A DNA stretch of 64,000 bases from Octopus vulgaris (lineage: Eukaryota), in NCBI GenBank assembly GCA_951406725.2, contig OX597814.1, positions 207,080,001 to 207,144,000 of the forward strand. Reading direction: 5' to 3'. A program made the translations under genes and the position numbers. Shown here piece after piece: positions 13,404-58,409 of this stretch. Each line of letters begins with the position of its first letter. Position 1 is the stretch's first letter. The notes under the pieces are model-generated. The model had not been told where the DNA came from. It did no database searches and saw nothing but the letters and a program-made list of their open reading frames with translations.

Positions 13404-15611
13404 TTAGTAAATTAACACACTGGTCTGTGGCGCATTCTCTTCTTCGAATATATTAATTGTATCAATAAGTTTGTCTGAGAGTGAAATGGCAAAATCAAAT
13501 TTAATATTAATTATTGACAATAATTTAGGTATCATAGAAGTCATCAATATCAAAGTAATCTTTGTGAAAACTGATAAGTCGAGATCATTTCGATTTATTA
13601 TATTGTTGCAAGCAAAGAAGAAAGATACGATTAGAAACAGTTTCACAATGGATTTACCAATCTCGTATCTCAAAGGAAAATGATGGTTAACAATTGTCTT
13701 GAGCAATTTAGCATTTATGAATTCCTCTCCGTATTTTTCCTGAACTAAATTTGGACGGAACATTTTAGTGAATTTTATAGACTGAAATATTATTGACTGA
13801 TACTGCTTTAGAAAGGCGTTCACAATTGCAATGCCATAAACGAAAAACATGGCAAGAAACCATATGTAACCTACACAATCGGGTTTAGCAAGTACTACGA
13901 TAGCTATGGTGAATATGTAGTTGCTTAAGATTTGAAAACTTACAAGAAATACGTAGATTGAACAAATCGCCCATGATATATAAAATGGCAACGATAGAAA
14001 TGTTAAAGGTACAGCAACTATCTTGAAAATATAATTGGGACTCAGATAGAGTGGGAAAATATAAACTTTGGAATAACTTAATGGTAAAGTTAAAATCCAG
14101 TAAACAATTGGGATTCCGTAATAAACGAGGCACAGAAATAATTCACAGACAGAAAATATAGCAAATAAAATTGTGATCGCAATAAAAAACCAAAGCAATA
14201 GGAATTTCCAGAAAATATTTCTGTTGTAGTAATATAACCAAATTTTCTTTATACGGTTAATCCAAGTATAAACTATTAAATGCCAGAAATTTGGGTTTAA
14301 AGCAGTAGAAATATTAGCTTTCATTATTGCATAGAGTAGATCATAATCCTGTTCTGTAGAAATATTTAAGCTGCCATACTTCTCTAATAATCTGATATTT
14401 TGAATGAGAAACGTGCAAGTGGATCTTTGATGTAATGTATTATAAGCGATAGTCTCACTTAAACGACTGGGAAGAACGAAGAGAATAAAGCTAAAAAATA
14501 TATAGCCGATGAACCACAAAAAGGGACCCCCGAGGAAGCCACCTGTATTTTCATAACTTTCTGGAATTCCTAATATTAGGGCGCGATAGCCCAATGGTAT
14601 GCGGTCTTGTATAAATATTTTTGTTGTTTCATATAAAAAGAAGTAATACATCAAAAGATCCAGGAGAATTACTAAAGGAAAAAACATAATGCAAAAGAAT
14701 CTTCTTAGTCTTGAGGCAAAGAAAGAAGAATAATGGAAACAAAATAAGCAAGACAGAAAATGAGAGAAGCTGTAAATACTATGTTTTCCATTGATCCATT
14801 CTGATTCGTATGGCATTGTGTTTCGATAGTAATATGAAGGTAATTTGGCTTTTGAAACAAAACTAATAAGCAATGGGAAAAATATCCACAAAACTGTTCC
14901 AACAATATTTTCATAATTGATAAACATACTATTTTCAATATTATTTCCTAAACAAATAGATTTGGGATGATAAAGATTACTTTCGTTTTTATAGAGTTTA
15001 CAGCAATAGTTCTTCACTATCTCCCGATTTATACCAATTCTTCTGCAAGCTTCATATGCGTGAGGGCTGTTCTTCTTCATGCCTTGAGACAAATTTACAA
15101 AAAAACACATGTATCCTGATTTTCCCATTTGCAATTTATCGATAAATACGAGTTTCTTCAATTCCTTGAAAATCAAATATATTATATCGCGTCTGTGAAT
15201 ATTTTGTTTTCTACATTTTATATCGATATTAATTCTTGGATAAGCAATATAGACATCTAACAAATTCAAAGAGTAAATTGAAAAATCATAGTAGAAATTT
15301 TTATATGCTATTAAACCGTCTGGTTCATCTGGAATCCAGGTAAAGTGTCTCGCGTTTGCAAAATAATCCAATGGTACAGGATTAAGAAGGTCATCAAGTG
15401 TCTTGTTTGATAAATGGAATTCAAAATTGAAAACCTTTTTTTCCAATTTTACTAAACGAGATAAAATCTCACTGACATTGGGAGGGATTTTAATTTGGCA
15501 ATCATTGTCGAGTTCCTTCGCTTCGATGTTTAGTGATGTCAGTGTGATAATAAGAATGATTGAAACAATAAGAGAACTGGTTGCTGTTGTTGTCGTCTGC
15601 ATGGCAGCCAT
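13404..15611 (-). CDS. Uncharacterised multi-pass membrane protein, paralogue 1 (735 aa, single coding exon)
   Basis: Uninterrupted 2.2-kb ORF in AT-rich DNA. Signal-peptide-like start ending IEA-KEL, ~200-aa Cys-containing ectodomain, about 9-10 hydrophobic segments. Full-length paralogue at 29611. Splice acceptor 10 nt upstream of the ATG and AATAAA just past the stop. Confidence 0.9.
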   Translation of the reverse strand: MAAMQTTTTATSSLIVSIILIITLTSLNIEAKELDNDCQIKIPPNVSEILSRLVKLEKKVFNFEFHLSNKTLDDLLNPVPLDYFANARHFTWIPDEPDGLIAYKNFYYDFSIYSLNLLDVYIAYPRINIDIKCRKQNIHRRDIIYLIFKELKKLVFIDKLQMGKSGYMCFFVNLSQGMKKNSPHAYEACRRIGINREIVKNYCCKLYKNESNLYHPKSICLGNNIENSMFINYENIVGTVLWIFFPLLISFVSKAKLPSYYYRNTMPYESEWINGKHSIYSFSHFLSCLFCFHYSSFFASRLRRFFCIMFFPLVILLDLLMYYFFLYETTKIFIQDRIPLGYRALILGIPESYENTGGFLGGPFLWFIGYIFFSFILFVLPSRLSETIAYNTLHQRSTCTFLIQNIRLLEKYGSLNISTEQDYDLLYAIMKANISTALNPNFWHLIVYTWINRIKKIWLYYYNRNIFWKFLLLWFFIAITILFAIFSVCELFLCLVYYGIPIVYWILTLPLSYSKVYIFPLYLSPNYIFKIVAVPLTFLSLPFYISWAICSIYVFLVSFQILSNYIFTIAIVVLAKPDCVGYIWFLAMFFVYGIAIVNAFLKQYQSIIFQSIKFTKMFRPNLVQEKYGEEFINAKLLKTIVNHHFPLRYEIGKSIVKLFLIVSFFFACNNIINRNDLDLSVFTKITLILMTSMIPKLLSIINIKFDFAISLSDKLIDTINIFEEENAPQTSVLIY

Positions 15612-15621
15612 ATTTAATTAT

Positions 15622-15645
15622 CTGTAATAATAACAGAAAAGAACA
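15622..15645 (-). promoter_or_regulatory. Putative 5'-UTR intron splice acceptor, paralogue 1
   Basis: Minus strand ttcttttctgttattattacAG|ataattaaat ATG; same spacing in paralogue 2. Confidence 0.65.
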
Positions 15646-15832
15646 TAAGATAATGAAGATTCGTTTTAGGTTCATTATTCCATAGATATTTCAAACAGAA
15701 AATATTCATTATAAACCTGAAAGTAAACTTTTTGTTTTTTTTTTTAGTATTAAATATAAATATTAATGTCCGGACAGGTGGTGTACAAAGCAAACACATG
15801 TATTAGTATAACGGTCAGGAATAGAAAAAGAT

Positions 15833-15915
15833 TTGTACGTTTCGAGCCTACGCTCTTCTACAGGAAGGGACATAGAAATAACAAGGAGAGAAAAAATGTG
15901 TGCAGTGGCTAACGA
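15833..15915 (-). mobile_element. Penelope pLTR fragment with hammerhead-like motif
   Basis: ctgtagaagagcgtaggctcgaaacgta; the same element occurs at 6040, 41088 and 44875. Confidence 0.7.
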
Positions 15916-15922
15916 TATATAT

Positions 15923-15965
<43 letters not shown>

Positions 15966-15968
15966 CGC

Positions 15969-16021
<53 letters not shown>

Positions 16022-16369
16022 GTATATATTTGAATAATGTGGGAAAACGAATTTCCAAATCGACCAGGTACACACCCTTTAACATTATATGCATTTTAAT
16101 CTGGAGAATATATACCGTGTATTCAACATCACCATATCGTGCAGTGGCGTCATGATTATAATATATTTATATATATATATTTATATAGAAATATACAAAA
16201 TATATAATAATATAAATTAATAATAGTTCAGTTATTGGGATTTCAATCAATAAGATTTGTGGGTATTCCATTTGAAATAATGCAAAAATAACATAACGTG
16301 TATTTATGTCGGAGCCTATCTCTGTCACGAATGGGGTAAAACATTATGATATACATTAAACACATCAGC

Positions 16370-17285
16370 GAATCTTGATGATGAAGTGTCACTACGCATT
16401 CAGAAACTCAGTTTTGCTTTCGGCAAATTAGAAGACCGCCTATGGTCTAGACATGCGACAAAGATTAAGGTATACAATACATGTATCTTAACCTCTTTGT
16501 TGAATGCTTGCGAAACCTGGACTGTGTATCGTAAGCACTTAAAACTTATGGAACGTTTTCATCAACAATGTCTGAGAAGGATTTTGAGGATCATCTGGAA
16601 AATGTTTGTGAGTGACGATGAAGAGGCTTGAAAGAGGGAAATGCTTCGGTATTGAAGCTTTGCTATTGCAGTACAGATTGAGATGGAGTGGACGCTTAGT
16701 GAGAATGACAACCAACAGAATGCCTAAACAGCTTTTTTTACGGAGAATTGGTGACAGGTAAGCGTCCGTCCCACAAACCAAAGACGTGGTACAGAGATTG
16801 TCTGAAGTCAGGATTGAATAAGATAAACGTTCCAATTGACAACTGTGAAGATTTAGCACATTGCCAAGAAAAATGGAAAAAAATTTCGTATGAAGGCAAA
16901 AATGGATTTGAAAGAAAGAGAATGGAGCATGGCAAGATCAAAAGAAAGATGAAACAAAGTGACAGGAATGATATTCAACAAACATTGATGAACGTGGTCA
17001 TCATACATGGGATGAATGTGGAAAGATTTGCCTTAGTAAGGCTGGGTTAAAGAGCCACATGAAATCCCACATGGCACAACCGCGCATTGATTATAGATGG
17101 ACAAAAGATTTCGAATGCATCCTCTGTCATAAAGTATGCAGATTGAAAAGTGGCTTGAAGAGGCACAGTAAAGTTCATGGAGCTGTAAACTATACAATTA
17201 CCAAGTTTTCTTGCGCTAATTGTTAAAAAGCATGCAAGTCTTTGGCAGGCCTCAAAGATCACATTCGTGCCGCTCATTGATGATA
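16370..17285 (+). mobile_element. RTE-clade LINE 3' remnant with C-terminal C2H2 zinc fingers
   Basis: RIQKLSFAFGKL..TKIKVY...CETWT...FHQQCLRRIL, RWSG, RMPKQL, then three CxxC-x12-HxxxH-like units at 17005-17280. Confidence 0.8.
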
Positions 17286-17371
17286 TTCTAGGGCATAATT
17301 AAGTCAAGAAATGGCTCTACTTGAAATCGAGTCGGCTACTATCATATATGTAAGTATGTGTGTGCGTGTGA

Positions 17372-17444
<73 letters not shown>

Positions 17445-17596
17445 TGGCTGTGTGTTAAGAAGCTTGCTTCCCAACAACATGGTTCCAGATTCAGTCCCAC
17501 TTCGTGGCACCTTGGGCAAGTATCTTCTACTATAGCCTCGGGCCGACCAAAGTCTTCTGAGTGGATTTGGTAGACGGAAACAGAAAGAAACCCGTC

Positions 17597-17600
<4 letters not shown>
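17445..17600 (+). mobile_element. SINE family A, 5' part (3' part resumes at ~19362-19482)
   Basis: Head and body match the other family A copies; interrupted within its internal (TA)n by the Penelope element. Confidence 0.8.
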
Positions 17601-17665
<65 letters not shown>

Positions 17666-17729
17666 AAACGGTAAGATAACAAAAGAAAGAAAGAGACCTC
17701 AATATTATGTAAATAGAGGAAATTTATCT

Positions 17730-19254
17730 ATACAATAATATGTTACATTACTCAATAGTCAAGATAAAACTCTGAGTTTCAGATGCCGAAGTGGAAATCC
17801 ACAACACCATCTCTTCGGTTATCTGGCTATTTGAAAACGCTATGAAAAAATACCGTTATACAAAGGGAAATTACTGTGTTATAACTCTGCTTGCCTGCGT
17901 ACTTATACATCGCTCGCATTTTTCGTCATAAAAATTATATAAAAATACATAAAAAATATATAAAAAATATATAAAAATATATAAAATCTTCTTGGGACAT
18001 AACATAGAAAGCATGTTCTATCTGTTTTCTTTAGGGGATCAAAAACGTAACAGAAATTTAGTCATATGTGGGCATGATCCGAAAAGTTCTGTCCTTGTGT
18101 TTAGACATGTAGTAGGGTCTAAGCTGCTTTTCCAGATAAGCCATCTCTCCATATCGCATAGACCGCACCTTCCGCTGCCGTTGGTAAAGGGCTTACATCT
18201 GGCCAAAATCTTCCATTGTATGTTATAATCGATACCTTTATCTCTTAAAGACCAAATATGATTAGATAATTGTGTCGCTTTTCTTTTGTTTCAGTGCCTA
18301 AAGCTCAAAGTGTGGTTATTGAACCTGGCCTTGAAATTACCCTCTGTAAGGCCCACGTATTTCTTCGTCGAAACGGTGTCTTTAGTGGTTATAGAGTTTA
18401 CGGTAGCTTCATATATGATGGTCTTGGACATGCAAGCTCCATTTAGCGGGCACAATTCTTTATTCCTGCATGAACAGCTGTTTTCTTGTTGTGTTTTTTG
18501 TATGTTATGTTTGATTATGTTTTTAAAATTGGTAGTGGAACTAAAACTAATTTTTAAATTGTGTCTATTGAAGAGTTTCCTATAAGTATGGTTAACTGGA
18601 AAATGTCTATCTATCAGTGCTAGGAAATATTTACCTATATTGAAGGCCACCTCGGGTGAGTAAGGGAGCGTAAACCAGATGACCTTCCTATTTCTATTAT
18701 TCCTTTTCCTTACTGTTGGGCTAGTAATGGGTGTATATTTTATTTTTTCGCTAAAACCACTATCTTTTAAAGCCTTATTATAAACTGGGGCAACGCTATT
18801 GAAGATGTCCTTATCAGAGGAGAGGCTAGAAATCCTCTTACTAATATTTTAAACTAAATTTTTGAAAACTATAGGGGGATGGCATGAACCTACATTAATA
18901 TAACTTAGTCTATCATTGGGCTTCCTATAAGGCTTATAAATATTCTTTTTAAGATCTAAGGAAACGTTTTTGGTCCCCTAAAGAAAACAGATAGAACATG
19001 CTTTCTATGTTATGTCCCAAGAAGATTTTATATAATTTTTATGTATTTTTATATAATTTTTATGACGAAAAATGCGAGCGATGTATAAGTACGCAGGCAA
19101 GCAGAGTTATAACACAGTAATTTCCCTTTGTATAACGGTATTTTTTCATAGCGTTTTCAAATAGCCAGATAACCGAAGAGATGGTGTTGTGGATTTCCAC
19201 TTCGGCATCTGAAACTCAGAGTTTTATCTTGACTATTGAGTAATGTAACATATT

Positions 19255-19262
<8 letters not shown>
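17730..19262 (-). mobile_element. Penelope-like element (Naiad-like) 3' fragment with ~300-bp inverted terminal repeat
   Basis: VIWFTLPY, CSCRNKELCPLNGAC, IIYEATV, KKYVGLTEGNFKARFNNH, LSNHIWSL, CGLC. 17730-18049 is inverted at 18962-19262, and each arm carries a hammerhead-like motif. Confidence 0.88.
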
Positions 19263-19306
<44 letters not shown>

Positions 19307-19846
19307 ACATATATATCATATATATATATATATACATACATACATACACATATATATGTATGTGTGTGTGTGTGTAAATGTTTATGTGTCTGTGTTTGTC
19401 CCCCCCAACATCGCTTGACAACCGATGCTGGTGTGTTTACGGTTCTCCAGCATGGCCTTAGTCATATTTACTGAAACAAGTAATATATATATATATATAT
19501 ATATATATCCTAATATAATAATGAGCGAAGTGTTTTGTATATTTGTCCAGAATCACGTGGGACGCGGAGGAGGAGAGAAAATAGTAATTCAGTGAAGGAG
19601 AAGTAGTGGGAGTAATAGCTCTGACTGAGAGGGAGTGAGAGAAAGTAATAGCAATGAGAGAAAGGAAGGAGTGATTGTTGAATAAGGAAGGAAGGGGTGA
19701 AAAAAATTAGCCTTCATCTCTGTATGAATATGTGTGTGTGTGTTTGTGTGTGTACAAAGGGAGTTTGTATGTGTGATTATTATGTACCGTATTTGTATAT
19801 AAAATACTACAATTAGCCATCATTATGGACGGCATGTGGTCATCCA

Positions 19847-20385
<539 letters not shown>

Positions 20386-20714
20386 GGAAAGAAGAGGTGT
20401 ATTTCTTGCAGGAAGCAATAGAAGAGAAGATGTTTGCGAAAAGGCACCAGAATTTGAAAAACTTGTAATTGTTTTTAAATAAATTTATTTATTTAAAATT
20501 TATTTATTTATTCCAAACTAATTTCAGCAATATTTTGTTTATCAATGATACAAATGTATAGAAAACAAAGCGATTTTAACAGGGTTTAAAATTACGAAGC
20601 AGAGAACGATGTTTAAATGATTAAATGTTGACAAAATTCAATGTCAGGGATAAATAATATCAAAAATGAACGGTGCGCGCACACGCACATATGCATTAAT
20701 AATTTAGGGTGCTT

Positions 20715-21112
20715 AGGCGGCGAGCTGGCAGAAACGATAGCACGCCGGGCGAAATGCTTAGCGGTATTTCGTCCGCCGTTACGTTTCTGAGTTCAAATTC
20801 CGCCGAGGTCGACTTTGCCTTTCGTCCTTTCGGGGTCGATTAAATAAGTACCAGTTACGCACTGGAGGTCGATATAATCGACTTAATCCGTTTGACCTTG
20901 TTTGTCCTCATTGTGTTTAGCCCCTTGTGGGTAGTAAAGAAATAGGTATTTCGTCTGCCGTTACGTTCTGAGTTCAAATTCCTCCGAGGTCGACTTCACC
21001 TTTCATCCTTTCAGGGTCTATGAATTAAGTACCAGTTGCATGGTGGGGTCAATCTAATCCACTGGCCGCCTCCCCCAAAATTTCGGTCCTTGTGCCTAGA
21101 GTAGAAAAGAAT
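20715..21112 (+). mobile_element. SINE family B, full-length dimeric copy
   Basis: ggcggcgagctggcagaaacg head with the core repeated at ~20785 and ~20965. Confidence 0.88.
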
Positions 21113-21472
21113 AATTAAGAGTGCCAAGAGCAATACGACTACAACCAAAAAATTTCTCTGACAAATATTAATTGAAATCGGGGTAATGAGTCGCCGTCCC
21201 AATAACGAAATAATTGTTTTGTGGTTATAGTTGTCTTCTGACTGCCATTTCTAGCGTGCTGGTGATACTTGTAGCATTCTTAATTATTAATTATGGTATT
21301 AATTATGGTATTTTCTTACGCCTGGTATGTCACTTGAAATGACCCGTCCTTTTATTCTTGTCTCTTTTTCGTATCATCTGTCTCGATGTTTTGCGTCCTT
21401 GTCCCACTTTTTGTATTCCTTTATATACATACATACATACATACATATATACATACATGCATGCATATATAT

Positions 21473-21510
<38 letters not shown>

Positions 21511-21573
21511 ATACATACATACACACATACATACATATATATGTTATATATATACACATATACACTTATATGC

Positions 21574-21642
<69 letters not shown>

Positions 21643-21711
21643 TTGAGGGAATATTATTCCTAACTTACAGGGAAAAACTCAATTTAGAAATACTAAATCA
21701 AATTTCACAAA

Positions 21712-21777
<66 letters not shown>

Positions 21778-21782
21778 ATAAT

Positions 21783-21932
21783 TAGAAAACAAAACACCTT
21801 TTATCAATTCAAAATAAAAAATTAACAATTAAATTACATCATCTAGAAAATTACATATATTATATGTATTTTTCGAGTTGGTGTAATTTAATTGTTCATT
21901 TTTAATTGATAAAAGGTGATTTTGTTTCAAAT
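21783..21932. repeat. Imperfect fold-back palindrome
   Basis: caccttttatcaatt..aacaattaaattaca.. mirrored by ..tgtaatttaattgtt..aattgataaaaggtg around ~21860. Confidence 0.75.
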
Positions 21933-21954
21933 TTATATATATATATATATATAT

Positions 21955-22108
<154 letters not shown>

Positions 22109-22402
22109 GGGTGCTAATGAAGCGGAGAGTGAAAGCAATGGATAGTGCGAAAAGGTAATTTTACCTTGAAACATTCAGATTAGTAGATTTATAAAATGTA
22201 ACACTCTGCGCAGTTGAACCGGGATCGACATAAGCTTTTATAAGATGAAAAGTTACATTGGACACTGACTTTGGTATATGTGAGAAGCAGGAATCAGAAT
22301 GTGAAATGAAGCAGGAATCAGAATGTTTTGGGACAAGGATGCTTATCGTTAACTAATTATTATTATTATTATTATTAATAATAATAATTACTTGTATTAT
22401 TA

Positions 22403-22590
22403 AGGCGGCGAGCTAGCAGAATCGTTAGCACGCCGGGCAAAGTGCTTAGCGTTATTTCATCTACTGTTACGTTCTGAGTTCACATTCCACCGAGGTTGAC
22501 TTTGCCTTTCATCCTTTCGGGCATGATAAAATTAGTACCAGTTACGCACTGGTACTAATTTGAAGCCTTGTACTTCCAGTAGAAAGGATT
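22403..22590 (+). mobile_element. SINE family B, truncated
   Basis: Head and core motifs present. Confidence 0.8.
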
Positions 22591-23129
22591 ATTATTAATT
22601 TTCTGTATTTAGAAATATTTTGTATCCATTTAACCCAAATTTTTATCTTGTATCCTATATAAGTTCCAGTTTTCGTAATTTCCTAATTGATGCATTCCCA
22701 TGATTGTTGATGTAATTAAAATGATTAAAGTGTTGACTGATGTTGCTATTTCTGATAATCGCATAATTATTTCTAGTAAATCGTGTAATATTTGCTGACA
22801 TAATTATGTGAAAATATAACCTCACCTAAAGCCGAATTTGCAGTTGTAAACAAATTGATGTCCGTGTGTTATAAATAAATATACCTAAAATTTACTTTTA
22901 TAAATTTCATAATACAGCCGAATGAATACTACTGCAATAACATCGAGAGGAATTTACGTAATATATATGAGGTCACTATGTGTATGGTCATTTGTGATTC
23001 GCTTACTTTAGGATTCCAGGAATTAAGGCTACAAATTTGTTTGCTCCCTATTGGTATTATCATTATTATTTGCTCATTGTCACAGGTTTTGTTGGAGTCT
23101 TGCATGCGTAGCGGCCTTATTACCTGCAA

Positions 23130-23360
23130 CCTACGCTACCATGCTATTCGTTCTTTTCAGCTAATAATTTTCCTGATTATTCTGGTCATGCCAAGGAGGC
23201 AAACCTTTTGTAACAGTTCTACTGGACACTCTATTCCAATTTCCTTTATATTCATCTTCATGTCTTCTGATACTGTTCCCAAGGAACCAACAATAATTGG
23301 CACTATCTTCACCATCTTCATTTTCCAAGGCCGAGCTATTTCGTACTTACAAGACATGAT

Positions 23361-23434
<74 letters not shown>

Positions 23435-24560
23435 CATCTATCTATCTATCTATCTATCTATCTGTTCACCTTCCTTATTGACTATTCGTGACTACAGCAT
23501 ATGTGGAGCACCTTGTCTACCACCACTAGGTCCCGGTCTATTATGCAGTAGTGCCTGATCTGTTTGGATTGGGAAATCCCAAAGGGTTTTGCTAGTCTCC
23601 GTCTCCGCCACTCCCTGCGGTTTGTGCTCATACCACGTCTTTCCTCTCTCTAGCCCCCACTTTTCGCACACTTTCCAATATAGCACTTTCGCTACCTGGT
23701 AATATCGCCACGACTTCTAGTGGTTTGTGGTCAAATCTTAAGCATTCCTTCTCTGTTGCAGATTCGACACAACGGAGACACTTGCTCATTCCTAAGGTTG
23801 ACCCTCCAGTTCGTGGCCAAAGCTGGTCTCTTTTTTTAGGGTTCCTTTCATCAACCAATGCCACCTCCCTTTCCCAGCAACTTCTGTGTCTGGCTACATG
23901 GAATTGATTGTGTAGTCCCTTCTTGCGTAATTCTTCCTCATGTCCCTTTTTGTACTTCTTCCTTTGTTTTCCCATTTCTCACTGCCATCAATACTCACTC
24001 GCTCCTAACTGTCGCTATGAAGGTTTCCGTACTTTGGGCTTAATATCTCATTAAGCTCTCGAGTTCGATACGCACGCAGTCTTCCATAACTATCAGTCCT
24101 CTTCCTCCATTTGCTCTCTTCATGTATAGACGATCAATGTCTGCACGTTGATGATGGGCTCCATGCATCGTCAGGAGCTTTCTTGACTTCCTGTCCATCT
24201 CCTTTAGCTCCTCCTCTGCTCACTTCAGGATTCCAGCGCCATACCGAACTACTGTGACTACGCGTGAGTTTATTGCCGAAGTTATGTTTCTGGTATGCAG
24301 TTTTGAGGCCAATAGTTTTCTCACTCACCGCATGTACTCTCTTTTTGTCTTTTCCTTCATGTCGTGGTATTTGAGTCCATCCGCATCAAGTATTCTCGGG
24401 TATTTATAGTTGGACTGAGGTTGAACTGCGTTCATCGTTTCACCACTTGGTAGCCATATGCCTTCTGTTCTGGCAAGCCTTCCTCGTCTCATCGCCATCG
24501 CAGCACATTTTGATAGTCTGAACTACATCTTTATATCATCGAAGAGGTGAAAATCAGGAG
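23130..24560 (-). mobile_element. R4/Dong LINE fragment (RT end, zinc knuckle, restriction-like endonuclease)
   Basis: YKYPRI, LYWKVCEKWG..WYEHKP...LWDFPIQTD...HNRP, KIVPIIVGSLG...LLQKVCLLG. Confidence 0.82.
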
Positions 24561-25099
24561 AAGAATCTTCCAGGAGAAAAGTGTCCCCCCACTGATATTC
24601 CCTTGAGTGAAATACTACAGAAGACAAAGTTGGGTTATGATCTGTGGAAAGGTAAAGGCGAGAGAGAGGAGACGAAGGGGCAGCAGGCAGCTAAGCTAGC
24701 CAAAATTCTAGTGTGTGGGGGGGGGGGCGAATTTATGTATAGAAATCTAAATTTTGGGGAGGACCTAGCATAACTAAGATATATAAATTTACGAAATACG
24801 ACAGGACGGCAATTTAACAGCTCTCCCCCAAAATCTGTACGCCTTTTCTATTACTTTCTATGATTACTAAAACTTTGAGATGTTTATAGATATTTTTGCT
24901 TTGTCTTTGTACAAGTTGACTCCAAGTCTCACCCAGAGATTTCAAGAGACAACAAGTTTGAAGTATTATGCTTAGGGTGTCACATATTTGGTTTTGCACA
25001 AAGTATTGTTCTAGAGAATGTTTAAGAAAACATAAGAAAATTATGAGTTTGTTTTAACATTTGAGATTACATAGACAGTACCTTATGTAGGATATGGGC

Positions 25100-27115
25100 T
25101 GTTCCCATGGGCACTATCATTTGAATTTCTGCTATTTTGGGGTTTCCTGATATCAGAGCTAGGTAGGAATCAGCCCATTATGCTATCATTTCTAGGACAT
25201 CTATGTCAACAGGTATTGTTTTAGTCTTAAGGTTCCACATTTTGCCAATTTCTGTTTCAAGATCTTTATACCTGCTGAGTTGCTGGTAAGCCATGACATA
25301 CCTATATGTCGATTGGAACATGATTCCAGCGCCATACCGAACTACTGTGACTACGCGTGAGTTTATTGCCGAACATGATTTTTTGTCTGACGTCTTTCAA
25401 TATGATGTCTGGCCTATTCGCATCTATCTTTCTGTCAGTTTGAACGGTGACTTTCCTGAGGAGTGAGATGTGGTCATTTTCAAGTATTGGAGGTGGTTTG
25501 TGTCCCTATCAGTTTTTATCCTGGGGCAGGTCCAGGTTTTGAAAATTACCCAGTGAATATACTGTGCTGCTCTATTATGCCTGTTGAGATACTCTGTAGG
25601 CGCAAGAAGACTGGACATAGATCAATGGTTTCATTTTGTTGTTTACATACACGACATGTTGGGCTACTGCTATTCTTTAATATGTTGGCCTGGTAGTTCC
25701 TTTCAGGTAGACATTGATCTTGGGCTGCTATGATAAAGCCTTCTGTTTCTGATTTTAAGCCAGAAGACACTAACCATTCATGAGTAATGGCTTTGTCAAT
25801 ACTGGCATTATTAGCTCCCTTGTGGTATTTACCACTGAGAGGCCATTTATCCGTAAGAATATCTAAGAAAGCAGTTTTAGCACGGGTCTTCATATGCTTA
25901 GCTTTTTCTGTGCTTGTTTCTGGGATTTGTTGTACTAGGAATTCACTTCGACAATCCTTTGCCTGTTTTGTTACTCAGTATGATGCTTTCTTGTTTTCAT
26001 GCTTTAAGACAAGTTTTAACATCCAGTCATCAGAGTTTCCAGGTAGGTGTTGAGGCCAATTGTGGCAATTTTCATTGCTAATTCCAGCTGTAAAAGTCTA
26101 CGGCATCTTTCTTTTCTTGGCAGCTAAAGTTGTTCTATATCTTCCTTAGTGTGGTGCATTCTATGCATTGTCAACAATTTTCAGATTTTTCTGTCAAGAT
26201 TACAGATTTCAGTGATTGACCAGTTAATGATATTGAAACTATAAGTCACGACCGGTATGGCTAAAGTATTGATCGCTTTGATCCTGTTTCTTGCATTCAG
26301 CTCTGTCTTGAGTATTGCTTTTACCCTGCGATAACATTCTCTTCTGTTCATTTCCCTCATCATTGAATGTTTTATTCCATCACCTTCAAATATCCCTAAG
26401 TATTTTTAGCTCTCCGCTGACTCTAACTCCTTTATGATATTCTGCTGGTGAAGATTAACGTTGGATGTTTCTGTCATTTTGCCTTTCATAAAAGTAGCTT
26501 TTGCACATCTATCGAAGCCAAATTGAATCCTGACGTCATCACTGAATTGTTTAACAATTGCTAGTAAACCTTGTAGTTGTTAGTAAGTTTTTCAAAAGAA
26601 CTTTAAATCAACCATGTAAAAGAGATGATTTATATTTTTATCAAACATTTTATATCCATATTGTACATCATTGAGCAATTTAGAGAGAGGTATAAAGGCT
26701 AGACACAAGAGGAGTGGTGATAGTGAGTAACCCTGGAAAATGCCACATGAAATTCTTACAACTCCAGCATTGAGAAATTCATTGTCACTGTTCAAAGTCA
26801 GTGTTATTCTCTATGATCTCATACTTACAGACAAGAGGTTTTGCAGAGTCGGTGCTATTTTATACATTTCCAGTCATTTCTTTAATCCATCTATGTTGTA
26901 GAATATCAAAAGCATTTTTATAATCTACCTAGGCTTTCGACAAGTTCATGTGTCGTTTGTGATAATATCTTGAGGTTCCACATTTTGCCAGTTTCTGTTT
27001 CAAGATCTTTATACTTGCTGAGTTGTTGGTAGGTCTTGACAGATACGTTTATGTCGATTGAGACAATCATATCAAAGAGGAGGCATGATTTTAAACTGAA
27101 GTCTATCCATACAAT
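25100..27115 (-). mobile_element. R4/Dong LINE fragments (second subfamily)
   Basis: GIFQGYSLSPLL, INHLFYMVDLK, NRIKAINTLAIPVVTYSF, LKSETEGFIIAAQDQ, CRVC, YLNRHN, RPNI..KYKDLE. Confidence 0.85.
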
Positions 27116-27126
27116 GTTTGGCCTAT

Positions 27127-27253
27127 TCTTCTTCTTCTTCTTCTTCTTCTTCTTCTTCTTCTTCTTCTTCTTCTTCTCCTCCTCCTCATCATCATCATCA
27201 TCATCATCACCATCACCACCACCACCACCACCATCGTCATCGTCATCGTCATG

Positions 27254-27287
<34 letters not shown>

Positions 27288-27293
27288 CCATTA

Positions 27294-27355
<62 letters not shown>
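27127..27355. repeat. Compound trinucleotide microsatellite (TTC/TCC/TCA/CCA/TTA)
   Basis: Direct inspection. Confidence 0.95.
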
Positions 27356-27399
27356 TTGTTGTCTTTGCACAGCTTCTAATGCTGGAGATGTACTACGGT

Positions 27400-28400
27400 G
27401 TCAGCTGTCCACTACCACTGAACTAAGGTAACACCCCTTATTTTTTTGAGCACCATCCGGAATATTCGATCGGTTCCAAGCAGTGCTGTTTTCTACAAGT
27501 GCTCCGCCCTTATTGCAGCCCGATTTGTTTCATATATTTCTCAAGATTTTTACTCACTTTTCCCAGGGTTCCAACAATTATTGGTACTACTACCACCGTT
27601 TTCATCGACCACAATAGCTTAACCTCCCAAGCTAACCTGTTACATCTATCGACTTTTCTTTCTTTTTTATCGCATTACTTCTTGTCAGCTGGGCACGCTA
27701 TATTTATGATCCAGCATCGTTTCCTTTCTTTCTCAATTAAGACTATTTCTGGTTTCCTATCCTCTATCTCTTGTCGCACTCAATCATAAAATCCCACTGG
27801 ATCTTTGCATTATCATTTTCGATGATGATTTCGGGTTTATGTTTATACTACTGTTTTACTTTGTCGAGTTTATACTTGTTGCAAAGTGTCCAATGGACAA
27901 TCTTTGCTCTATTTTCATGAATTCTCTTATATTCTTTCTGGGTTACTGGTGCACTTTGACTGGTAATACGCCATACGGTTTCCCCATTTTGTCTACAATC
28001 TTTGTACTTATCACTTTCTGCAGTGTTGTCTATTCTGTATTTGATGTAATTGGTTCTTAATGCTTGCTCTTAGGCAGCACAGATTATAGTCTCTGTTCTC
28101 GGTTTTAAATCACTTTTAGTCATCCATAGCCATCTTTTTTCTCTGTCTGTCTTATTTTCAATATCTCTATGAAATTGCCCATGCATTCTTTTCTTTATCC
28201 ACCTATTTTCAGTTTCATTCATTTTCGATTTCTTGTATAGTGCTTTATCTTTGCAATCTTTCATCCTACACAAGCCTAGCCTTCTTACGTCCCCCTCTTT
28301 TTCTTACTACATTAAGTCTGTCTGTACCACTTTCTGGGTAGAGTATCCCATATCTCGTCAACAACTTCCTTGCCTTTCTGTCCAAGCTGTTTAGTTCGTC
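27400..28400 (-). mobile_element. R4/Dong LINE 3' fragment (third subfamily)
   Basis: KRMHGQFHR..WLWMTKSDLKPRTETIICAA and KIQWDF; homologous to 10900-11350; abuts (TTA)n. Confidence 0.8.
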
Positions 28401-28814
28401 CGGTAGCCGCATACCAACCGATATGTTGTATTTCAGTGACGTCTTAGGCACTGATGTCGCAAATAGCCAGTAGGCTTGTGAAAGAATAATTATTAACGAC
28501 AAAAGTATTATTAGTACCAGAAGGCAATGTTTACATCTACCCGAACGTATCAGACGATTCTCTTTTGCGAACGACGTGAATATGTGCGCCCCATGTGTCA
28601 ATATGAGAAGTCCTCTCAAGGTAAATAACTCAGTATTGGGTGTTCTAACAAATCATTCACGTTAAGTTGGATATAAAGATTGTTTTTTGGTACTAATACT
28701 GCTTCTGTCGTTAATAATTATGATTTAAGTGAAGTTAAACAGTTTTTGTGTTTTGCTATATCTAAATTCTCTTCACACTGCAATCGTCTTTCTTTCAATA
28801 TACGGCTTCAGAAA

Positions 28815-29212
28815 AGGCGGCGAGCTGGCAGAAATGTTAGCACACCGGGCGAAATGCCTTGCGGTATTTTGTCTGCTGCTACGTTCTGAGTTCAAATCCC
28901 GCCGAGGTCGACTTTGCCGTTCATCCTTTCGGGGTCCATTAAATAAGTACCAGTTACGCACTGCGGCCGATATGATCGATATATTCCGTTTGTCTGTCCT
29001 TGTTTGTCCCCTCTGTGTTTAGCCCCTTGTGGGTAGTAAAGAAATAGGTATTTCGTCTGTCTTTATGTTCTGAGTTCAAATTCCGCCGAGGTCGACTTTA
29101 CCTTTCATCCTTTCGGGGTCGATTAATTAAGTACCAGTTGCGTACTGAGGTCGATCTAATCAACGTGCCCTCTGCAACAAAATTTCAGGCCTTGTGCCTA
29201 GAGTAGAAACGA
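28815..29212 (+). mobile_element. SINE family B, dimeric copy
   Basis: Same structure as 20715-21112. Confidence 0.88.
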
Positions 29213-29610
29213 ATATACGGCCTCAGATAAAAACATTTAACTCCTATACATGTGCGTGCGCGTGTTTAGGAGTTACATCCGCACACACATGCAACGTCGC
29301 AAATTACACGGACACACACTCATACACACACATACATACATATACATACACATTTAATTTACATTTATGTATATGTGTGTACATGTCTGCCTACATGTTT
29401 GCTTGTCTGTTTGTCTGTCTATCTGTCTGTATTTATGTATGTATGTATGTATGTATGTATGTATGTATGCATGTATGTATATAATGGGATATTGTAAGTG
29501 TACGTGATTCTGTGATTTCTACATACGTCAATACAGATTTCTTTTATTCGAATTATACAACGTATTTAGAGAACAGAATATACCTTCTGAAAATTTCAAA
29601 GCATTTTTAT

Positions 29611-31821
29611 TTAATAAGAAATTGATAAACTGGAATGTGATGCATTGCCATCTTCAAATGTACTTATTGTTTCGATAATTGTATGTGTCATGGATGTAAA
29701 AAAACTCAATTTAGAATTAATTATTGCCAAAAATTTAGGTATCATAGACGTCATCAATATCAGAGTAAACCTTGTGAACGCTGATAAGTCCAAGTCTTCT
29801 CGACTTATTATATTGTTGCAAGCAAAGAAAAAAGATACGATTAGAAACAGTTTTATAATGGATTTACCAATCTCGTATCTCAATGGAAAATGATGGTTAA
29901 CAATTGTCTTGAACAGCTTGGCATTTATGAATTCCTCTCCATATTTTACCTGAACAAATCTTGGACAAACGGTTTTGGTGAGTTTTATAGACTGAACTAT
30001 AACTAATTGATTCTGCTTGATAATGGCTTTCGCAATTGCAACGGTATACACGAAAAACATGGCAACAAACCATACGTCCCCGACATTATCAGGTTTAGCA
30101 AGAACCGTAACAGCTATCGTAAATATGTAATTGCAAAGAATTTGGAAACTTGAAAGAAATATATAGATTGAATAAAGAGCCCACAATATATAAAATGGAA
30201 ACGATAGAATAGTAAAAAGTACTGCAACAATCTCAAAAATATGATTATTATTCCTATAGAGTGGGAAAATATAAACATTGGAATAGCTGAAAGGTAAACT
30301 TGAAATCAAATAAACAATTGGTATTCCATAATAAACGAGGCACAGAAATAATTCACAGACAGAAAATACAGCAAATAAAATTGTAATGGAAACAAAGAGC
30401 CAAAGTGTAATGAATTTCCAGAAAATATTTCTCCTGTAGTAATATAACCAAATTTTCTTGATACGGTTAAACCAAGTATGGATTATTAAATACCAGAAAT
30501 TTGGGTTTAAAGCAGTAGAAATATTAGCTTTCATTATTGCATAGAGTAGATCATAATCCTGTTGTGTAGAAACATTTAAACTGCCATACTTCTCTAATAA
30601 TGTGATATTTTGAATGAGAAATGTGCAAGTGGAACTTCGATGTAATGTATTATAAGCGATAGACTCACTTAAACAACTGGGAAGAACGAAGAGGATAAAG
30701 TTGAAAGATACGTAACAGATTAACCATACAAAGGGACCACCAAAAAAGCCATCAGTATTCTCATAACTTTCTGGGATTCCTAATATTAGGGCGCGATAGC
30801 CCAATGGTATACCATCTCGGTAAAGAATTTCTACTGTTTCATATAAAAAGAAGTAATGCATCAAAAGATCCAGGAAAATTACTGACAGAGAAAATAGAAT
30901 ACAAAGGAATCTTCTTAGTCTTGAGGCAAAGAAAGAGGAATTATGGAAACAAAATAACCAAGACAGAAAATGAGAGAAACTGTAAGTATTATGGTTTTTG
31001 TTGATCCATTCTGATTTGTATGGCAATGTGTTTTGATGCGGAAATGAAGGCAATTTAGCTTGTGAAAGAAGACTAACGATTAACGGAAAAAATATCCACA
31101 CAATTGCTCCGACGATATTTGCATAATTGAGAAACATACTATTTTCCATGATATTTCCAGAACAAATTGATTTTGAGTGATAAACATAGCTTTCATTTTT
31201 ATAGAGTTTACAGCAATAGTTCTTCACCAACTCTCGATTTATACCCAATCTTCTGTTAGCTTTCAATGACTCAGGGCTGTTCTTCTTCATGTCTTGAGAC
31301 AAATTTACAATAAAACACATGTAACCAGATTCTCCCATTTTTAATGTATCGATCACTGCGATTTTCTTCAATTCCTGGAAAATCAAATGTATTAAATCAT
31401 ATCTCTGAATATTTTCTTTCCCACAATTTATATCGACATCAACTCTTGGAGTAGCAATGTAAGCTCCTAATAAATTCAAAGAGTAAATTGAAAAATCATA
31501 ATAGAAATTCTTATACGCTATTAAACCATCTGGTTCGTCTGGAATCCAGGTAAATTGTCTCGCGTTTGCGAAATAATCCATTCGTACGGGTTTCAGAAGT
31601 TCATCAAGCCTTTTATCGGATAAATGGACATCGAAATTGAAAACCTTTTTGTCTGATCTTACTAAACGAGATAAAATCTTATGGACATTGGGAGAAATCT
31701 TAATTTCACAGTTATTTCCAAGTTCCTTCGCTTCTATGTTTAGTGATATTTGAACGACAATAAAAGTAATCACAAGGAAAAGTGAACTGCTTGTTGTTAT
31801 CGTCATCTGCATGGCAGCCAT
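29611..31821 (-). CDS. Uncharacterised multi-pass membrane protein, paralogue 2 (736 aa from ATG 31821)
   Basis: Colinear with paralogue 1 along its length (MAAMQ start, DYFANAR.FTWIPDEPDGLIAYKNFYYDFSIYSLNLL, KNYCCKLYKNES, HHFPLRYEIGKS). The track's TTG start at 31848 lies upstream of a splice acceptor. Confidence 0.9.
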   Translation of the reverse strand: MAAMQMTITTSSSLFLVITFIVVQISLNIEAKELGNNCEIKISPNVHKILSRLVRSDKKVFNFDVHLSDKRLDELLKPVRMDYFANARQFTWIPDEPDGLIAYKNFYYDFSIYSLNLLGAYIATPRVDVDINCGKENIQRYDLIHLIFQELKKIAVIDTLKMGESGYMCFIVNLSQDMKKNSPESLKANRRLGINRELVKNYCCKLYKNESYVYHSKSICSGNIMENSMFLNYANIVGAIVWIFFPLIVSLLSQAKLPSFPHQNTLPYKSEWINKNHNTYSFSHFLSWLFCFHNSSFFASRLRRFLCILFSLSVIFLDLLMHYFFLYETVEILYRDGIPLGYRALILGIPESYENTDGFFGGPFVWLICYVSFNFILFVLPSCLSESIAYNTLHRSSTCTFLIQNITLLEKYGSLNVSTQQDYDLLYAIMKANISTALNPNFWYLIIHTWFNRIKKIWLYYYRRNIFWKFITLWLFVSITILFAVFSVCELFLCLVYYGIPIVYLISSLPFSYSNVYIFPLYRNNNHIFEIVAVLFTILSFPFYILWALYSIYIFLSSFQILCNYIFTIAVTVLAKPDNVGDVWFVAMFFVYTVAIAKAIIKQNQLVIVQSIKLTKTVCPRFVQVKYGEEFINAKLFKTIVNHHFPLRYEIGKSIIKLFLIVSFFFACNNIISREDLDLSAFTRFTLILMTSMIPKFLAIINSKLSFFTSMTHTIIETISTFEDGNASHSSLSISY

Positions 31822-31831: not shown

Positions 31832-31855
31832 CTGTAAGAGAAAAACAAGATAGAT
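31832..31855 (-). promoter_or_regulatory. Putative 5'-UTR intron splice acceptor, paralogue 2
   Basis: Minus strand cttgtttttctcttacAG|aaaacgaaat ATG. Confidence 0.65.
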
Positions 31856-32596
31856 AGAAGTCATAAAATATTGAAGATTCATTTTAGTTTCGTTATTTTA
31901 TAAATATTTGAAAATAAAGAGTATTTAATTAAAAATGAATGTAAATCTATTTTATTATTTATTTACTAGAAAGACAAATGTTGTGGCCAGCGGAGCAGAG
32001 GTCATATTGTATTTTGTGCTTTGCAAGTTCCTATTTTAGTTGTAATATTTCTTAATTTAAATTTTGATGAAGGAAGTACCGCAGAAGTACCATTTGGTTT
32101 GCCACCCCACCATCTCTCTTAACACAAAAAACTCCTGTAGGTAGAATATTCCTTAAATTAATAGTAAACATTTCACTAGCTCCCATAGGTACGGTTACAT
32201 TTTTAACAGGCTCAAAGTTAGAGCCTCTTTTACATGTCGGCCAATATTAAGAGCATTCTAGTTAGCGGCCCCGGGCCACGGGACGAGGAAGGATGTTCCT
32301 GCAAGGACTGCAAAAGGTGCAACATGGGAGGCCACTGCAAAACCAAAGGGGCCTTCTACTAAGTTGAAGTACTAGCAAACCCTGGCAATACGACCGGTAG
32401 AACCAGTAGCAGCAGCCGTAGATAGAGGAACAGAACCGGCAATGCCACCACCATCTCCACAGTTACCAACATTGACAACACCAGCGACAGCCATGGGCAG
32501 TTCCCCCGACGGCATCGACGACAACAACAACAGCCACATCGCCATATATATGTGTGCATGCGTGTGTGTGTGTGTGTGTGTGTAACAAATAATACA

Positions 32597-33387: not shown

Positions 33388-33534
33388 CATCTAGGGAAAA
33401 ATACGAAAAATGAGAATGGTATGTATTAATGAGATGACGAAAGAGAGGCAGAATAAGGAGACGGAAAGAAAGAAGAAAACAGAAGTATATAATTCATAGT
33501 TTAACTTTCGGAAGTTGTAGAAACAAGAGCATGA

Positions 33535-36500
33535 GTCCTTAGGTGCAACGCTGCGTAGATCCATGAGGGTACGTCCTTAGGTGCAACCCTGCGTAGATCC
33601 ATGAGCGTAAGTCCTTAGGTGCAACACTGCGTAGATCCATGAGCGTACGTCCTTAGGTGCAACCCTGCGTAGATCCATGAGCGTAAGTCCTTAGGTGCAA
33701 CCCTGCGTAGATCCATGAGCGTAAGTCCTTAGGTGCAAACCTGCGTAGATCCATGAGCGTAAGTCCTTAGGTGCAACCCTGCGTAGATCCATGAGCGTAA
33801 GTCGTTAGGTGCAACTCTGCGTAGATCCATGAGCGTAAGTCCTTAGGTGCAACCCTGCGTAGATCCATGAGAGTAAGTCCTTAGGTGCAACACTGCGTAG
33901 ATCCATGAGCGTACGTACTTAGGTGCAACCCTGCGTAGATCCATGAGCGTAAGTCCTTAGGTGCAACCCTGCGTAGATCCATGAGCGTAAGTCCTTAGGT
34001 GCAACCCTGCGTAGATCCATGAGCGTAAGTCCTTAGAAGCAACCCTGCGTAGATCCATGAGCGTAAATCCGTAGGTGCAACCCTGCGTAGATCCATGAAC
34101 GTAAGTCCTTAGGTGCAAACCTGAGTAGATCCATGAGCGTACGTCCTTAGGTGCAAACCTGCGTAGATCCATGAGCGTACGTCCTTAAGTGCAAACCTGC
34201 GGAGATCCATGAGCGTAAGTCCTTAGGTGCAACCCTGCGTAGATCCATGAGCGTAAGTCCTTAGGTGCAAACCTGCGTAGATCCATGAGCGTAAGTCCTT
34301 AGGTGCAACCCTGCGTAGATCTATGAGCGTAAGTCCTTAGGTGCAACTCTGCGTAGATCCATGAGCGTAAGTCCTTAGGTGCAACCTAGCGTAGATCCAT
34401 GAGCGTAAGTCCTTAGGTGCAACACTGCGTAGATCCATGAGCGTAAGTCCTTAGGTGCAACCTGCGTAGATCCATGAGCGTAAGTCCTTAGGTGCAACCC
34501 TGCGTAGATCCATGAGCGTAAGTTCCTTAGGTGCAACCCTGCGTAGATCCATGAGCGTAAGTCCTTAGGTGCAACCCTGCGTAGATCCATGAGCGTAAAT
34601 CCGTAGGTGCAACCCTGCGTAGATCCATGAACGTAAGTCCTTAGGTGCAACCCTGCGTAGATCCATGAGCGTAAGTCCTTAGGTGCAACCCTGCGTAGAT
34701 CCATGAGCGTAAGTCCTTAGGTGCAACCCTGCGTAGATCCATGAGAGTAAGTCCTTAGGTGCAACCCTGCGTAGATCCATGAGCGTACGTACTTAGGTGC
34801 AACCCTGCGTAGATCCATGAGCGTAAGTCCTTAGGTGCAACCCTGCGTAGATCCATGAGCGTAAGTCCTTAGATGCCACCCTGCGTAGATCCATGAGCGT
34901 AAGTCCTTAGGTGTAAACCTGCGTAGATCCATGAGCGTAAGTCCTTAGGTGCAACCCCGCGTAGATCCATGATCGTAAGTCCTTAGGTGTAACACTGCGT
35001 AGATCCATGAGCGTACGTCGTTAGGTGCAACCCTGCGTAGATCCATGAGCGTAAGTCCTTAGGTGCAACACTGCGTAGATCCATGAGCGTAAGTCCTTAG
35101 GTGCAACCCTGCGTAGATCCATGAGCGTAAGTCCCTAGGTGCAACCCTGCGTAGATCCATGAGCGTAAGTCCTTAGGTGCAACTCTGCGTAGATCCATGA
35201 GCGTAAGTCCTTAGGTGCAAAACTGCGTAGATCCATGAGCGTAAGTCCTTAGGTGCAACCCTGCGTAGATCCATGAGCGTAAGTCCTTAGATGCAACCCT
35301 GCGTAGATCCATGAGCGTAAGTCCTTAGGTGCAACCCTGCGTAGATCCATGAGCGTAAGTCCTTAGGTGCAACCCTGCGTAGATCCATGAGCGTAAGTCC
35401 TTAGGTGCAACCCTGCGTAGATCCATGAGCGTAAGTCCTTAGGTGCAACCCTGCGTAGATCCATGAGCGTAAGTCCTTAGGTGCAACCCTGCGTAGATCC
35501 ATGTGCGTACGTCGTTAGGTCAACCCTGCAGATCCATGAGCGTAAGTCCTTGGTGCAACCCTGCGTAGATCCATGAGCGTAAGTCCTTAGGTGCAACCCT
35601 GCGTAGATCCATGAGCGTAAGTCCTTAGGTGCCTTAGGTGCAAACCTGCGTAGATCCATGAGCGTAAGTCGCTTAGGTGCAACCCTGCGTAGATCCATGA
35701 GCGTAATTCCTTAGGTGCAACCCTGCGTAGATCCATGATCGTAAGTCCTTAGGTGCAACCCTGCGTAGATCCATGAGCGTAAGTCCTTAGGTGCAACCCT
35801 GCGTAGATCCATGAGCGTAAGTCCTTAGGTGCAACCCTGCGTAGATCCATGATCGTAAGTCCTTAGGTGCAACCCTGCGTAGATCCATGAGCGTAAGTCC
35901 TTAGGTGCAACCCTGCGTAGATCCATGAGCGTAAGTCCTTAGGTGCAACCCTGCGTAGATCCATGAGCGTAAGTCCTTAGGTGCAACCCTGCGTAGATCC
36001 ATGAGCGTACGTCGTTAGGTGCAACCCTGCGTAGATCCATGAGCGTAAGTCCTTAGGTGCAACCCTGTGTAGATCCATGAGAGTAAGTCCTTAGGTGCAA
36101 CCCTGCGTAGATCCATGAGCGTACGTACTTAGGTGCAACCCTGCGTAGATCCATGAGCGTAAGTCCTTAGGTGCAACCCTGCGTAGATCCATGAGCGTAA
36201 GTCCTTAGGTGCAACCCTGCGTAGATCCATGAGCGTAATTCCTTAGGTTCCTTAAGTCCTTAGGTGCAACCCTAAGCGTAGATCCATGACGTAGCGGGCA
36301 ACCTGCGTAAGTAGTCCTTAGGTGCAACCCTGCGTAGATCCATGAGCGTAAGTCCTGTGCAACCTGGATGCAACCGTGCGCGTAGATCCATGAGCGTAAG
36401 TCCTTAGGTGCAACCCTGCGTAGATCCATGAGCGTAAGTCCTTAGGTGCAACCCTGCGTAGATCCATGAGCGTAAGTCCTTAGGTGCAACCCTGCGTAGA

Positions 36501-57500: not shown

Positions 57501-58409
<909 letters not shown>

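Follow-up and report, generated by a model that had tools for sequence, protein, structure and literature searches.

We describe a family of multi-pass membrane proteins that came to light in a 64,000-nucleotide stretch of the Octopus vulgaris genome (assembly GCA_951406725.2, contig OX597814.1, positions 207,080,001 to 207,144,000; hereafter the window), in which two intact genes, copy A and copy B, lie near parts of two further copies (Table 1). The family is real, constrained, ancient and repeatedly expanded, and it has no characterised match in the searches that we ran; the protein class is very probably a new one.

Copies A and B are colinear, spaced 14.0 kb apart, and identical at 535 of 734 residues (73%). 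The original prediction, made from the letters of the window, that two intact open reading frames (ORFs) of 735 and 736 residues lie on one strand about 14 kb apart is therefore borne out, on the minus strand. Each protein has an N-terminal hydrophobic helix and about ten later hydropathy peaks; the nine or ten hydrophobic segments that had been predicted are thus accounted for and the predicted signal peptide is likely, except that nine membrane crossings appear to fit loop charge and the model better than ten. The shared ectodomain cysteines hold as well: the six at positions 38, 133, 169, 203, 204 and 220 are each kept in 65 to 69 of 69 diverse relatives, and the ectodomain also carries the consensus motifs WxW and P-x-D-x-x-x-x-S-x-G-L-L. 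The decayed third copy that had been announced does exist, but outside the range of 13404-31821 given for it and on the plus strand. The nearest named proteins to A and B are octopus proteins labelled ‘uncharacterized’. The counterpart of A matches at 97% over the full 735 residues in Octopus sinensis and at 90% over 574 residues in O. bimaculoides; that of B matches at 85% over its full length in O. bimaculoides and at 93% over 512 residues in O. sinensis. Each of the two thus has a counterpart of its own elsewhere among octopus species, and these paralogues persist as distinct genes.

In both genes the coding region is a single exon. A pyrimidine tract with a YAG stands just 5′ of the start codon, mostly 10–11 nucleotides before the ATG, in all 30 loci examined, so that an intron in the 5′ untranslated region (UTR), with a non-coding first exon, is likely; the earlier description of these genes as intron-free holds for the coding region but probably not for the 5′ UTR. 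Upstream of A and B we found only a few short common stretches, probably repeats.

The family is by no means confined to octopus. A sequence search among 1.84 billion representatives returned 99 matches at E ≤ 0.001, mostly 750–860 residues long and 21–29% identical; species names were present on six of the 23 non-octopus clusters checked (four Mytilus, one Haliotis and one Owenia). A profile search added one protein with a precomputed Pfam accession, PF28478 (aligned to the octopus–mollusc profile over 667 columns, hhalign probability 99.4%), which in turn led to 165 relatives, with PF28478 present in 114 of the 120 listed. We refer to these as the coral branch, a label that rests on one named row, Porites lutea. 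Reciprocal profile scores between the octopus–mollusc and coral branches reach E 7e-48 and 1e-28, and the six cysteines and several prolines are common to both; these comparisons support homology of the octopus family to the PF28478-bearing proteins over their full length. The octopus proteins themselves are without a precomputed Pfam domain for PF28478. In a tree of 96 rows (63 of them without a group label), 15 octopod rows, 12 coral-branch rows and a large clade with Mytilus rows form separate groups: judged by sequence, the members of the array are one octopod clade, apart from the bivalve and coral expansions, and the family is not an octopus invention, for members occur also in bivalves, a gastropod, an annelid and corals. 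Among the named relatives there is none from a vertebrate, an arthropod or a nematode; few rows are named, so absence from those groups is not established. Viral or transposon cargo was ruled out: there is no viral fold match, phage records hold no match to the family, and the tree follows animal groups as far as these are named.

An AlphaFold2 model built from an 87-sequence alignment is confident (predicted local distance difference test score, pLDDT, 87.0; predicted template modelling score, pTM, 0.83); the model from a shallow alignment, that of 15 octopod sequences, was unusable (pLDDT 45.6). In the former, a helix at residues 5–27 precedes an alpha/beta ectodomain (38–225), followed by helices at 229–252, 297–325, 363–379, 466–499, 501–523, 527–575, 577–618, 647–674 and 681–701, and a C-terminal helix. 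Sequons for N-glycosylation are concentrated in the ectodomain, at 2.1 per 100 residues in both branches (against 0.5–0.6 in the long loops of spiralian relatives; the coral loop 253–300 has 1.2), and the loops 381–465, 513–530 and 601–652 and the tail are rich in Lys and Arg. From these two features we infer an extracellular ectodomain and nine crossings, with 527–575 modelled as one long tilted helix.

Neither sequence nor fold leads to a characterised family, in keeping with the original proposal of a separate, undescribed one, although the coral branch already has its Pfam accession. In Pfam, A and B match no family at E ≤ 1; the best E among 15 octopod members is 0.092 and among 59 relatives 0.017, and the coral query gave none. 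At E < 0.01 no family was matched by any of the 59 relatives, the 15 octopod members or a single-copy paralogue described below, and this includes TMC/OSCA/TMEM16, otopetrin, the seven-transmembrane (7TM) ion channels and TM9SF. Searches of PDB sequences, for which A, three profiles and the same paralogue served as queries, reached E 0.16 at best, and the ESM Atlas held no usable match. The modelling and Foldseek checks that had been suggested beforehand yielded the nine-crossing model and no fold match: with the whole 735-residue model, none of 424 Foldseek matches in the PDB has E ≤ 0.001 (best E 0.58, TM-scores up to 0.11), nor does any of 42 among viral structures. A wide VIA comparison with 48,161 chains gave a single row at Z ≥ 8, that of SIDT2 (Z 8.4 over 78 residues in the last three helices), which is tied with unrelated bundles; a second VIA look gave none of 423 at this level, and its best listed rows are the VIP1 receptor (Z 5.3, root-mean-square deviation (rmsd) 8.5, 154 residues) and GLP-1R (Z 5.2, rmsd 8.3). 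TMC/OSCA/TMEM16, otopetrin, 7TM ion channels, innexin and TM9SF have no rows among the listed fold matches, which come from whole-model searches that do not exclude these families and that may miss a single-domain match such as a known ectodomain fold.

The window samples a much larger array. The octopod radiation comprises at least 54 loci in six clusters, of which 26 are intact, 27 are broken and one is cut by a contig end, so that the tandem birth and death first proposed from the copies in the window is now seen across the genome. The total is a lower bound: 68 matches, from the 61 of 98 candidates that were scored, merged into 51 loci, and further searches added three. The best 30 loci include 24 with an ORF of at least 728 residues, one of which (L018, with its usual ATG out of frame) was removed from the intact set; 20 further loci provide three intact genes and the one cut by the contig end, and the remaining four are broken. 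Assembly error may explain some of the frameshifts behind the broken count. Among the 24 long ORFs there are 14 lineages less than 90% identical to one another, and many copies are 93–99% identical; some near-identical copies may be alleles. Most of the window (positions 1-57100) duplicates, as an inverted segment, the main cluster that lies some 0.9 Mb off (C1:206.17-206.23 Mb), with 91–99% identity over tens of kb, and the A–B cassette is present three times, again at C1:206.04-206.07 Mb. Pure assembly duplication could be ruled out, since three A–B cassettes and a fourth A exceed two haplotypes and since the lineages are so divergent.

Three of the copies on C5 carry Ser/Pro/Asn/Gln/Glu repeats, variable in number and up to about 210 residues long, in loop 253–300, predicted to be the first on the cytosolic side, as expected for a cytosolic loop. 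In the region that bears these repeats (G000:C5:16.30-16.49 Mb; loci L074, L076, L079 and L072), the database gene models P0016-P0018 splice across these single-exon genes. A further database model, P0019, fuses a gelsolin/villin-like protein with part of a family member and is likely a chimera of neighbouring genes.

Genome searches that used two distant relatives as queries recovered the array alone; with a third we found a diverged paralogue, an open frame of 966 codons on the plus strand of C5 (G000:C5:116,790,395-116,793,295; L056:4395-7295). It aligns with the family over 630 columns with 99.6% probability, and it keeps all six cysteines together with P246, P501, Y604, P646 and P695. There is a splice acceptor near the 5′ end of the frame, the start of which is probably in an upstream exon. 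When the paralogue itself was searched against the genome, it found itself only (one match from 11 candidates in a strict first look); Pfam and PDB sequences held no match for it, and none of 54 pattern matches to it in metagenome contigs was confirmed. It is deeply diverged and apparently single-copy in this genome. In the tree its branch is long and of unsure placement, and falls outside the mollusc–annelid group to which the array belongs. This paralogue is a candidate for an ancestral form or a shared subunit.

Intact copies are under purifying selection. Over 14 representatives, the ratio of replacement to silent divergence (dN/dS), for which a per-domain analysis had been recommended at the outset, is 0.43 in the mature protein and 0.41 in its ectodomain, and higher in the signal peptide (0.79) and in the tail (0.74). 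Such selection, together with the homologues, rules out chance or repeat-derived ORFs. The loop at residues 386–462 had been described as nearly invariant, and its replacement divergence is indeed low, but its silent divergence is low as well (pS 0.157 against 0.30 for the mature protein; none of 1000 scan-corrected shuffles is as low) and just a few of its residues (F442, W443 and R453) are kept in at least 90% of distant relatives. In copy A the low-pS stretches are codons 381–460 and 641–680 (pS among paralogues 0.15–0.18, against about 0.30). Since silent as well as replacement changes are scarce in the loop, gene conversion, or constraint at the nucleotide level, is likely to be at work beyond any constraint on the protein; the shuffle test speaks to regional heterogeneity and is no proof of conversion. 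The low silent divergence weakens the case for the loop as a functional signature. Site models (M1a/M2a) favour a class under positive selection in four of five segments (p 8e-5 to 0.0075), with sites H184, I231, I406 and N564, which we treat as a lead only.

Another set of observations concerns the residues that the family keeps. These are the cysteines, prolines, aromatics, an ectodomain motif D109-S114-G116-L118 (consensus letters), R453, G571/572 and Y604. The only charged residues kept in more than 70% of the 69 relatives are D109 and R453, and no His reaches 45%; with no conserved His and few conserved charges, an enzyme function is unlikely. Charged sites are predicted to lie within membrane helices. 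E490 is acidic in all 69 spiralian relatives and in all 14 octopus representatives; D/E557 is found in 36 of the 69; and position 564 is R or K in 42 of the 69, while 13 of 28 coral-branch sequences have R there. In the octopus paralogues, position 564 holds eight different residues (2.69 bits, the most variable site listed in helix 6), and helix 6 is more variable than the ectodomain (1.02 against 0.77 bits). Charge at this position in the relatives, together with its diversification among the paralogues, fits either a pore or a ligand pocket.

Tandem arrays of single-coding-exon genes with birth and death are typical of chemoreceptor families. It is this chemoreceptor-like genomic pattern, together with site 564, that makes the sensing of outside chemicals by a set of surface receptors the most likely of the explanations considered, and we hold it tentatively: the paralogues may be diversified cell-surface receptors that signal by the opening of a polar path through the membrane, possibly as ionotropic receptors. 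The ligand would bind to the ectodomain or to the extracellular end of the helix 6/7 region, and paralogue-specific residues (184, 231, 548, 550 and 564) would tune what is sensed. The membrane-embedded charges at E490, D/E557 and R/K564 (the latter two in relatives) may line a conducting or ligand-holding cavity.

A number of points weigh against such chemoreceptors. As aligned, neither the coral branch nor the single-copy paralogue keeps E490. A helical-moment test of helix 6 was significant neither for a polar face (p 0.5-0.85) nor for a variable one (p 0.23-0.5). The site-model signal is weak, comes from simplified in-house code, is absent in one of the five segments, includes one degenerate fit and can be inflated by recombination among paralogues. 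Divergence in the ectodomain is not much above that in the membrane domain (dN 0.18 against 0.09-0.25). Corals and mussels, which are sessile, have large numbers of family members too; PDB sequence and fold searches offer no solved homologue to supply a mechanism; and the literature searched mentions none of 12 gene identifiers. Finally, the identical genomic pattern fits immune receptors too.

We consider it rather unlikely that these are innate-immune or self/non-self receptors, whose ectodomain would bind microbial or foreign surfaces while the membrane domain signals or permeabilises the cell. The independent expansions in octopods, bivalves and corals speak for that role, as do the breakage of half of the loci, the location of one cluster at the beginning of a contig and the gene conversion signal; yet no immunoglobulin, leucine-rich repeat, lectin or TIR domain was found in the 59 relatives or 15 octopod members scanned, and the ectodomain, at the dN/dS given above, is not hypervariable. 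STRA6-like transporters of solutes or lipids, in which the ectodomain would capture a carrier or substrate for the membrane domain to move, and the paralogues would differ in substrate or tissue, could explain the approximately nine helices, the unusually long helix 527–575, the helix-breaking prolines that are kept almost universally and the buried charges. Two octopus members even bear the automatic UniRef name ‘STRA6’. That label is refuted by structure (Foldseek 5sy1_A: E 2.4, TM-score 0.11/0.13, rmsd 33.9), and the Pfam family of retinol-binding-protein receptors is matched by neither A, B nor any of the 15 octopod members, the two so named included. No transporter fold occurs in any fold-search list, and fast birth and death, with 27 broken loci, would be unusual for nutrient transporters, so that we regard a transport function as unlikely.

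The A–B cassette lies in a recent segmental duplication shared with two other places, at 95–99% identity over tens of kb, and this, along with the many copies that are nearly identical, is what might be expected if the array had grown mainly by segmental duplication, with a dosage benefit or by drift, in genes whose role is not sensory but epithelial or structural (handling of ions or water, adhesion or the gamete surface). The 14 divergent lineages among the long ORFs, each of them constrained, and the separate counterparts of A and B in other species make this distinctly improbable. Least probable of all, in our estimation, is that the searches missed a characterised membrane family of which these proteins are a very divergent branch. 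Whole-model fold searches may overlook a single domain, the coral branch carries a Pfam accession whose name we could not read, and the top VIA row is SIDT2; on the other hand, the membrane domain makes up two thirds of a confident model that has no closer Foldseek match than those given above, and the SIDT2 row covers no more than a three-helix bundle.

If the proteins are indeed chemoreceptors, one may speculate further that they form a class of ligand-gated sensory channel with a new structure, which would date back to the cnidarian–bilaterian split and would have undergone separate radiations in corals, bivalves and octopods. The approximately 50 octopus paralogues would then give the animal a second chemosensory repertoire in addition to its chemotactile receptors, with tuning through the ectodomain and helix-6 position 564, and the C5 paralogue would be their shared co-receptor; we think it unlikely that this scheme is correct as a whole. 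New classes of multi-pass receptor or channel are rare in animals, and here the array is among the larger tandem arrays of this octopus genome, in a family that spans corals to octopus. The one-exon coding regions mean that the genes can be cloned straight from genomic DNA for screening. Should they prove sensory, they would add a class of chemoreceptor for marine invertebrates, whose receptors for prey, microbe and settlement cues are often missing; should they serve immunity or transport, they would still represent a new membrane fold with lineage-specific expansions.

Apart from the family, long ORFs in the window belong to retroelements or to simple repeats, which are listed in Table 1 with the features of the family.

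Table 1. Positions of family members, their parts and other elements in the window, and of the six gene clusters in the genome (contigs C1 and C5)
Feature	Position	Strand	Description
Copy A	13404-15611	minus	Intact single-coding-exon ORF, 735 residues
Copy B	29611-31821	minus	Intact single-coding-exon ORF, 736 residues
Putative signal peptide of A, residues 1-31	15519-15611	minus	Hydropathy peak 1.98, helix 5-27; predicted cleavage
Ectodomain of A, residues 32-228	14928-15518	minus	Alpha/beta; six cysteines; model pLDDT mostly 87-96
Membrane domain of A, residues 229-701	13509-14927	minus	Nine crossings predicted, C-terminus intracellular; count suggested by loop charge parity
Loop 386-462 of A	14226-14456	minus	Likely cytosolic; homogenised among paralogues, silent and replacement divergence both low
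Long membrane helix 6 of A, residues 531-575	13887-14021	minus	Most variable membrane segment among octopus paralogues
Pyrimidine tract and AG acceptor of A	15622-15650	minus	10 nucleotides before ATG
Pyrimidine tract and AG acceptor of B	31832-31860	minus	10 nucleotides before ATG
Decayed third copy	8182-9112	plus	Residues 326-654 only; frameshifts and stops; opposite orientation to A and B
Fourth copy	1-168	plus	3′ end only in window; begins about 2 kb before it (G000:C1:207077942); frameshift near codon 520
Cluster 1	C1:205.66-206.41 Mb		30 loci within 747 kb
Cluster 2	C5		12 loci within 241 kb
Cluster 3	At window		4 loci
Cluster 4	First 106 kb of C1		4 loci
Cluster 5	C1:7.5 Mb		3 loci
Cluster 6	C1:216 Mb		1 locus
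Penelope-like retroelement remnant	3676-5043	plus	Reverse transcriptase and GIY-YIG pieces; no Pfam match
G+C-rich tandem repeat	33527-37168		38-bp unit in about 90 copies, with 94% similarity in the first part; lies 1.7 kb 5′ of copy B
Penelope-like retroelement remnant	45444-47100	minus	Reverse transcriptase and GIY-YIG pieces; weak Pfam match
Long interspersed nuclear element (LINE)	49738-52734	minus	Apparently intact; endonuclease and reverse transcriptase, 998 residues
ORF with CCCH-like motif	52686-53597	minus	303 residues; upstream of LINE ORF
A+T-rich satellite	53733-55150		87/64-bp
AAT run	57608-58408		Perfect, 800 bp
GTAT array	59567-61706		2.1 kb
Second reverse transcriptase ORF	62632-63855	minus	With PHD finger

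The literature searched for the family, for PF28478 and for the gene identifiers contains no description of it, within a coverage that leaves out most subscription papers. Nor did the supplementary files covered from PMC9712504, PMC9815951, PMC13230822 and PMC9068888, a set that does not extend to the full expression tables, contain a match to the family. In the portions available, one of these sources mentions further squid gene arrays without similarity to known proteins (PMC9068888, Supplementary Table 4), which may bear on novelty; another names a few uncharacterised markers, whose identifiers cannot be linked to the octopus family (PMC9815951); and the expansions treated in the accessible part of a third are those of protocadherin, G-protein-coupled receptor (GPCR) and zinc-finger genes (PMC9795677).

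Comparison with known systems brings out what sets these proteins apart. The absence of GPCR and Cys-loop signatures noted in the original prediction is upheld by Pfam, in which neither is matched. For GPCRs (class A, B, C or adhesion), there is no seven-helix bundle, and the best listed fold rows are poor (rmsd 8.3-8.5). STRA6 shares with the octopus proteins a set of about nine membrane helices, but is not known to have a comparable N-terminal ectodomain of 200 residues with six cysteines. The SID-1/SIDT (CREST) proteins are alike in having a signal peptide, an ectodomain, many helices and a length of about 800 residues. SID-1/CREST proteins have a conserved His/His/His-Ser-Asp metal site in the membrane. 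No such site is seen here, given the lack of conserved His, and there is no Pfam match; the SIDT2 row in VIA (rmsd 2.7) falls within helices 577–710 only, which resemble generic helical bundles equally well. Insect odorant, gustatory and ionotropic receptors provide an analogy only, that of many fast-turnover paralogues beside one deeply diverged single-copy relative, with no link of sequence or fold found between their repertoires and the octopus family. Cys-loop receptors, the chemotactile receptors of octopus among them, place four membrane helices after a beta-sandwich ligand-binding ectodomain; the proteins described here differ from them in helix number, with about nine, and in the alpha/beta fold of the ectodomain, and show no Pfam or fold match. 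The proteins described here and the chemotactile receptors have in common a clustered expansion in octopus and a signal peptide, an ectodomain and a membrane domain encoded in a single coding exon. The latter, in the sections available of their description, are 26 clustered acetylcholine-receptor-like genes that are expressed in suckers (PMC9068888). The genomic pattern of the present family, an intronless tandem array with birth and death, is already of a known kind; its very probable newness lies in the class of protein.

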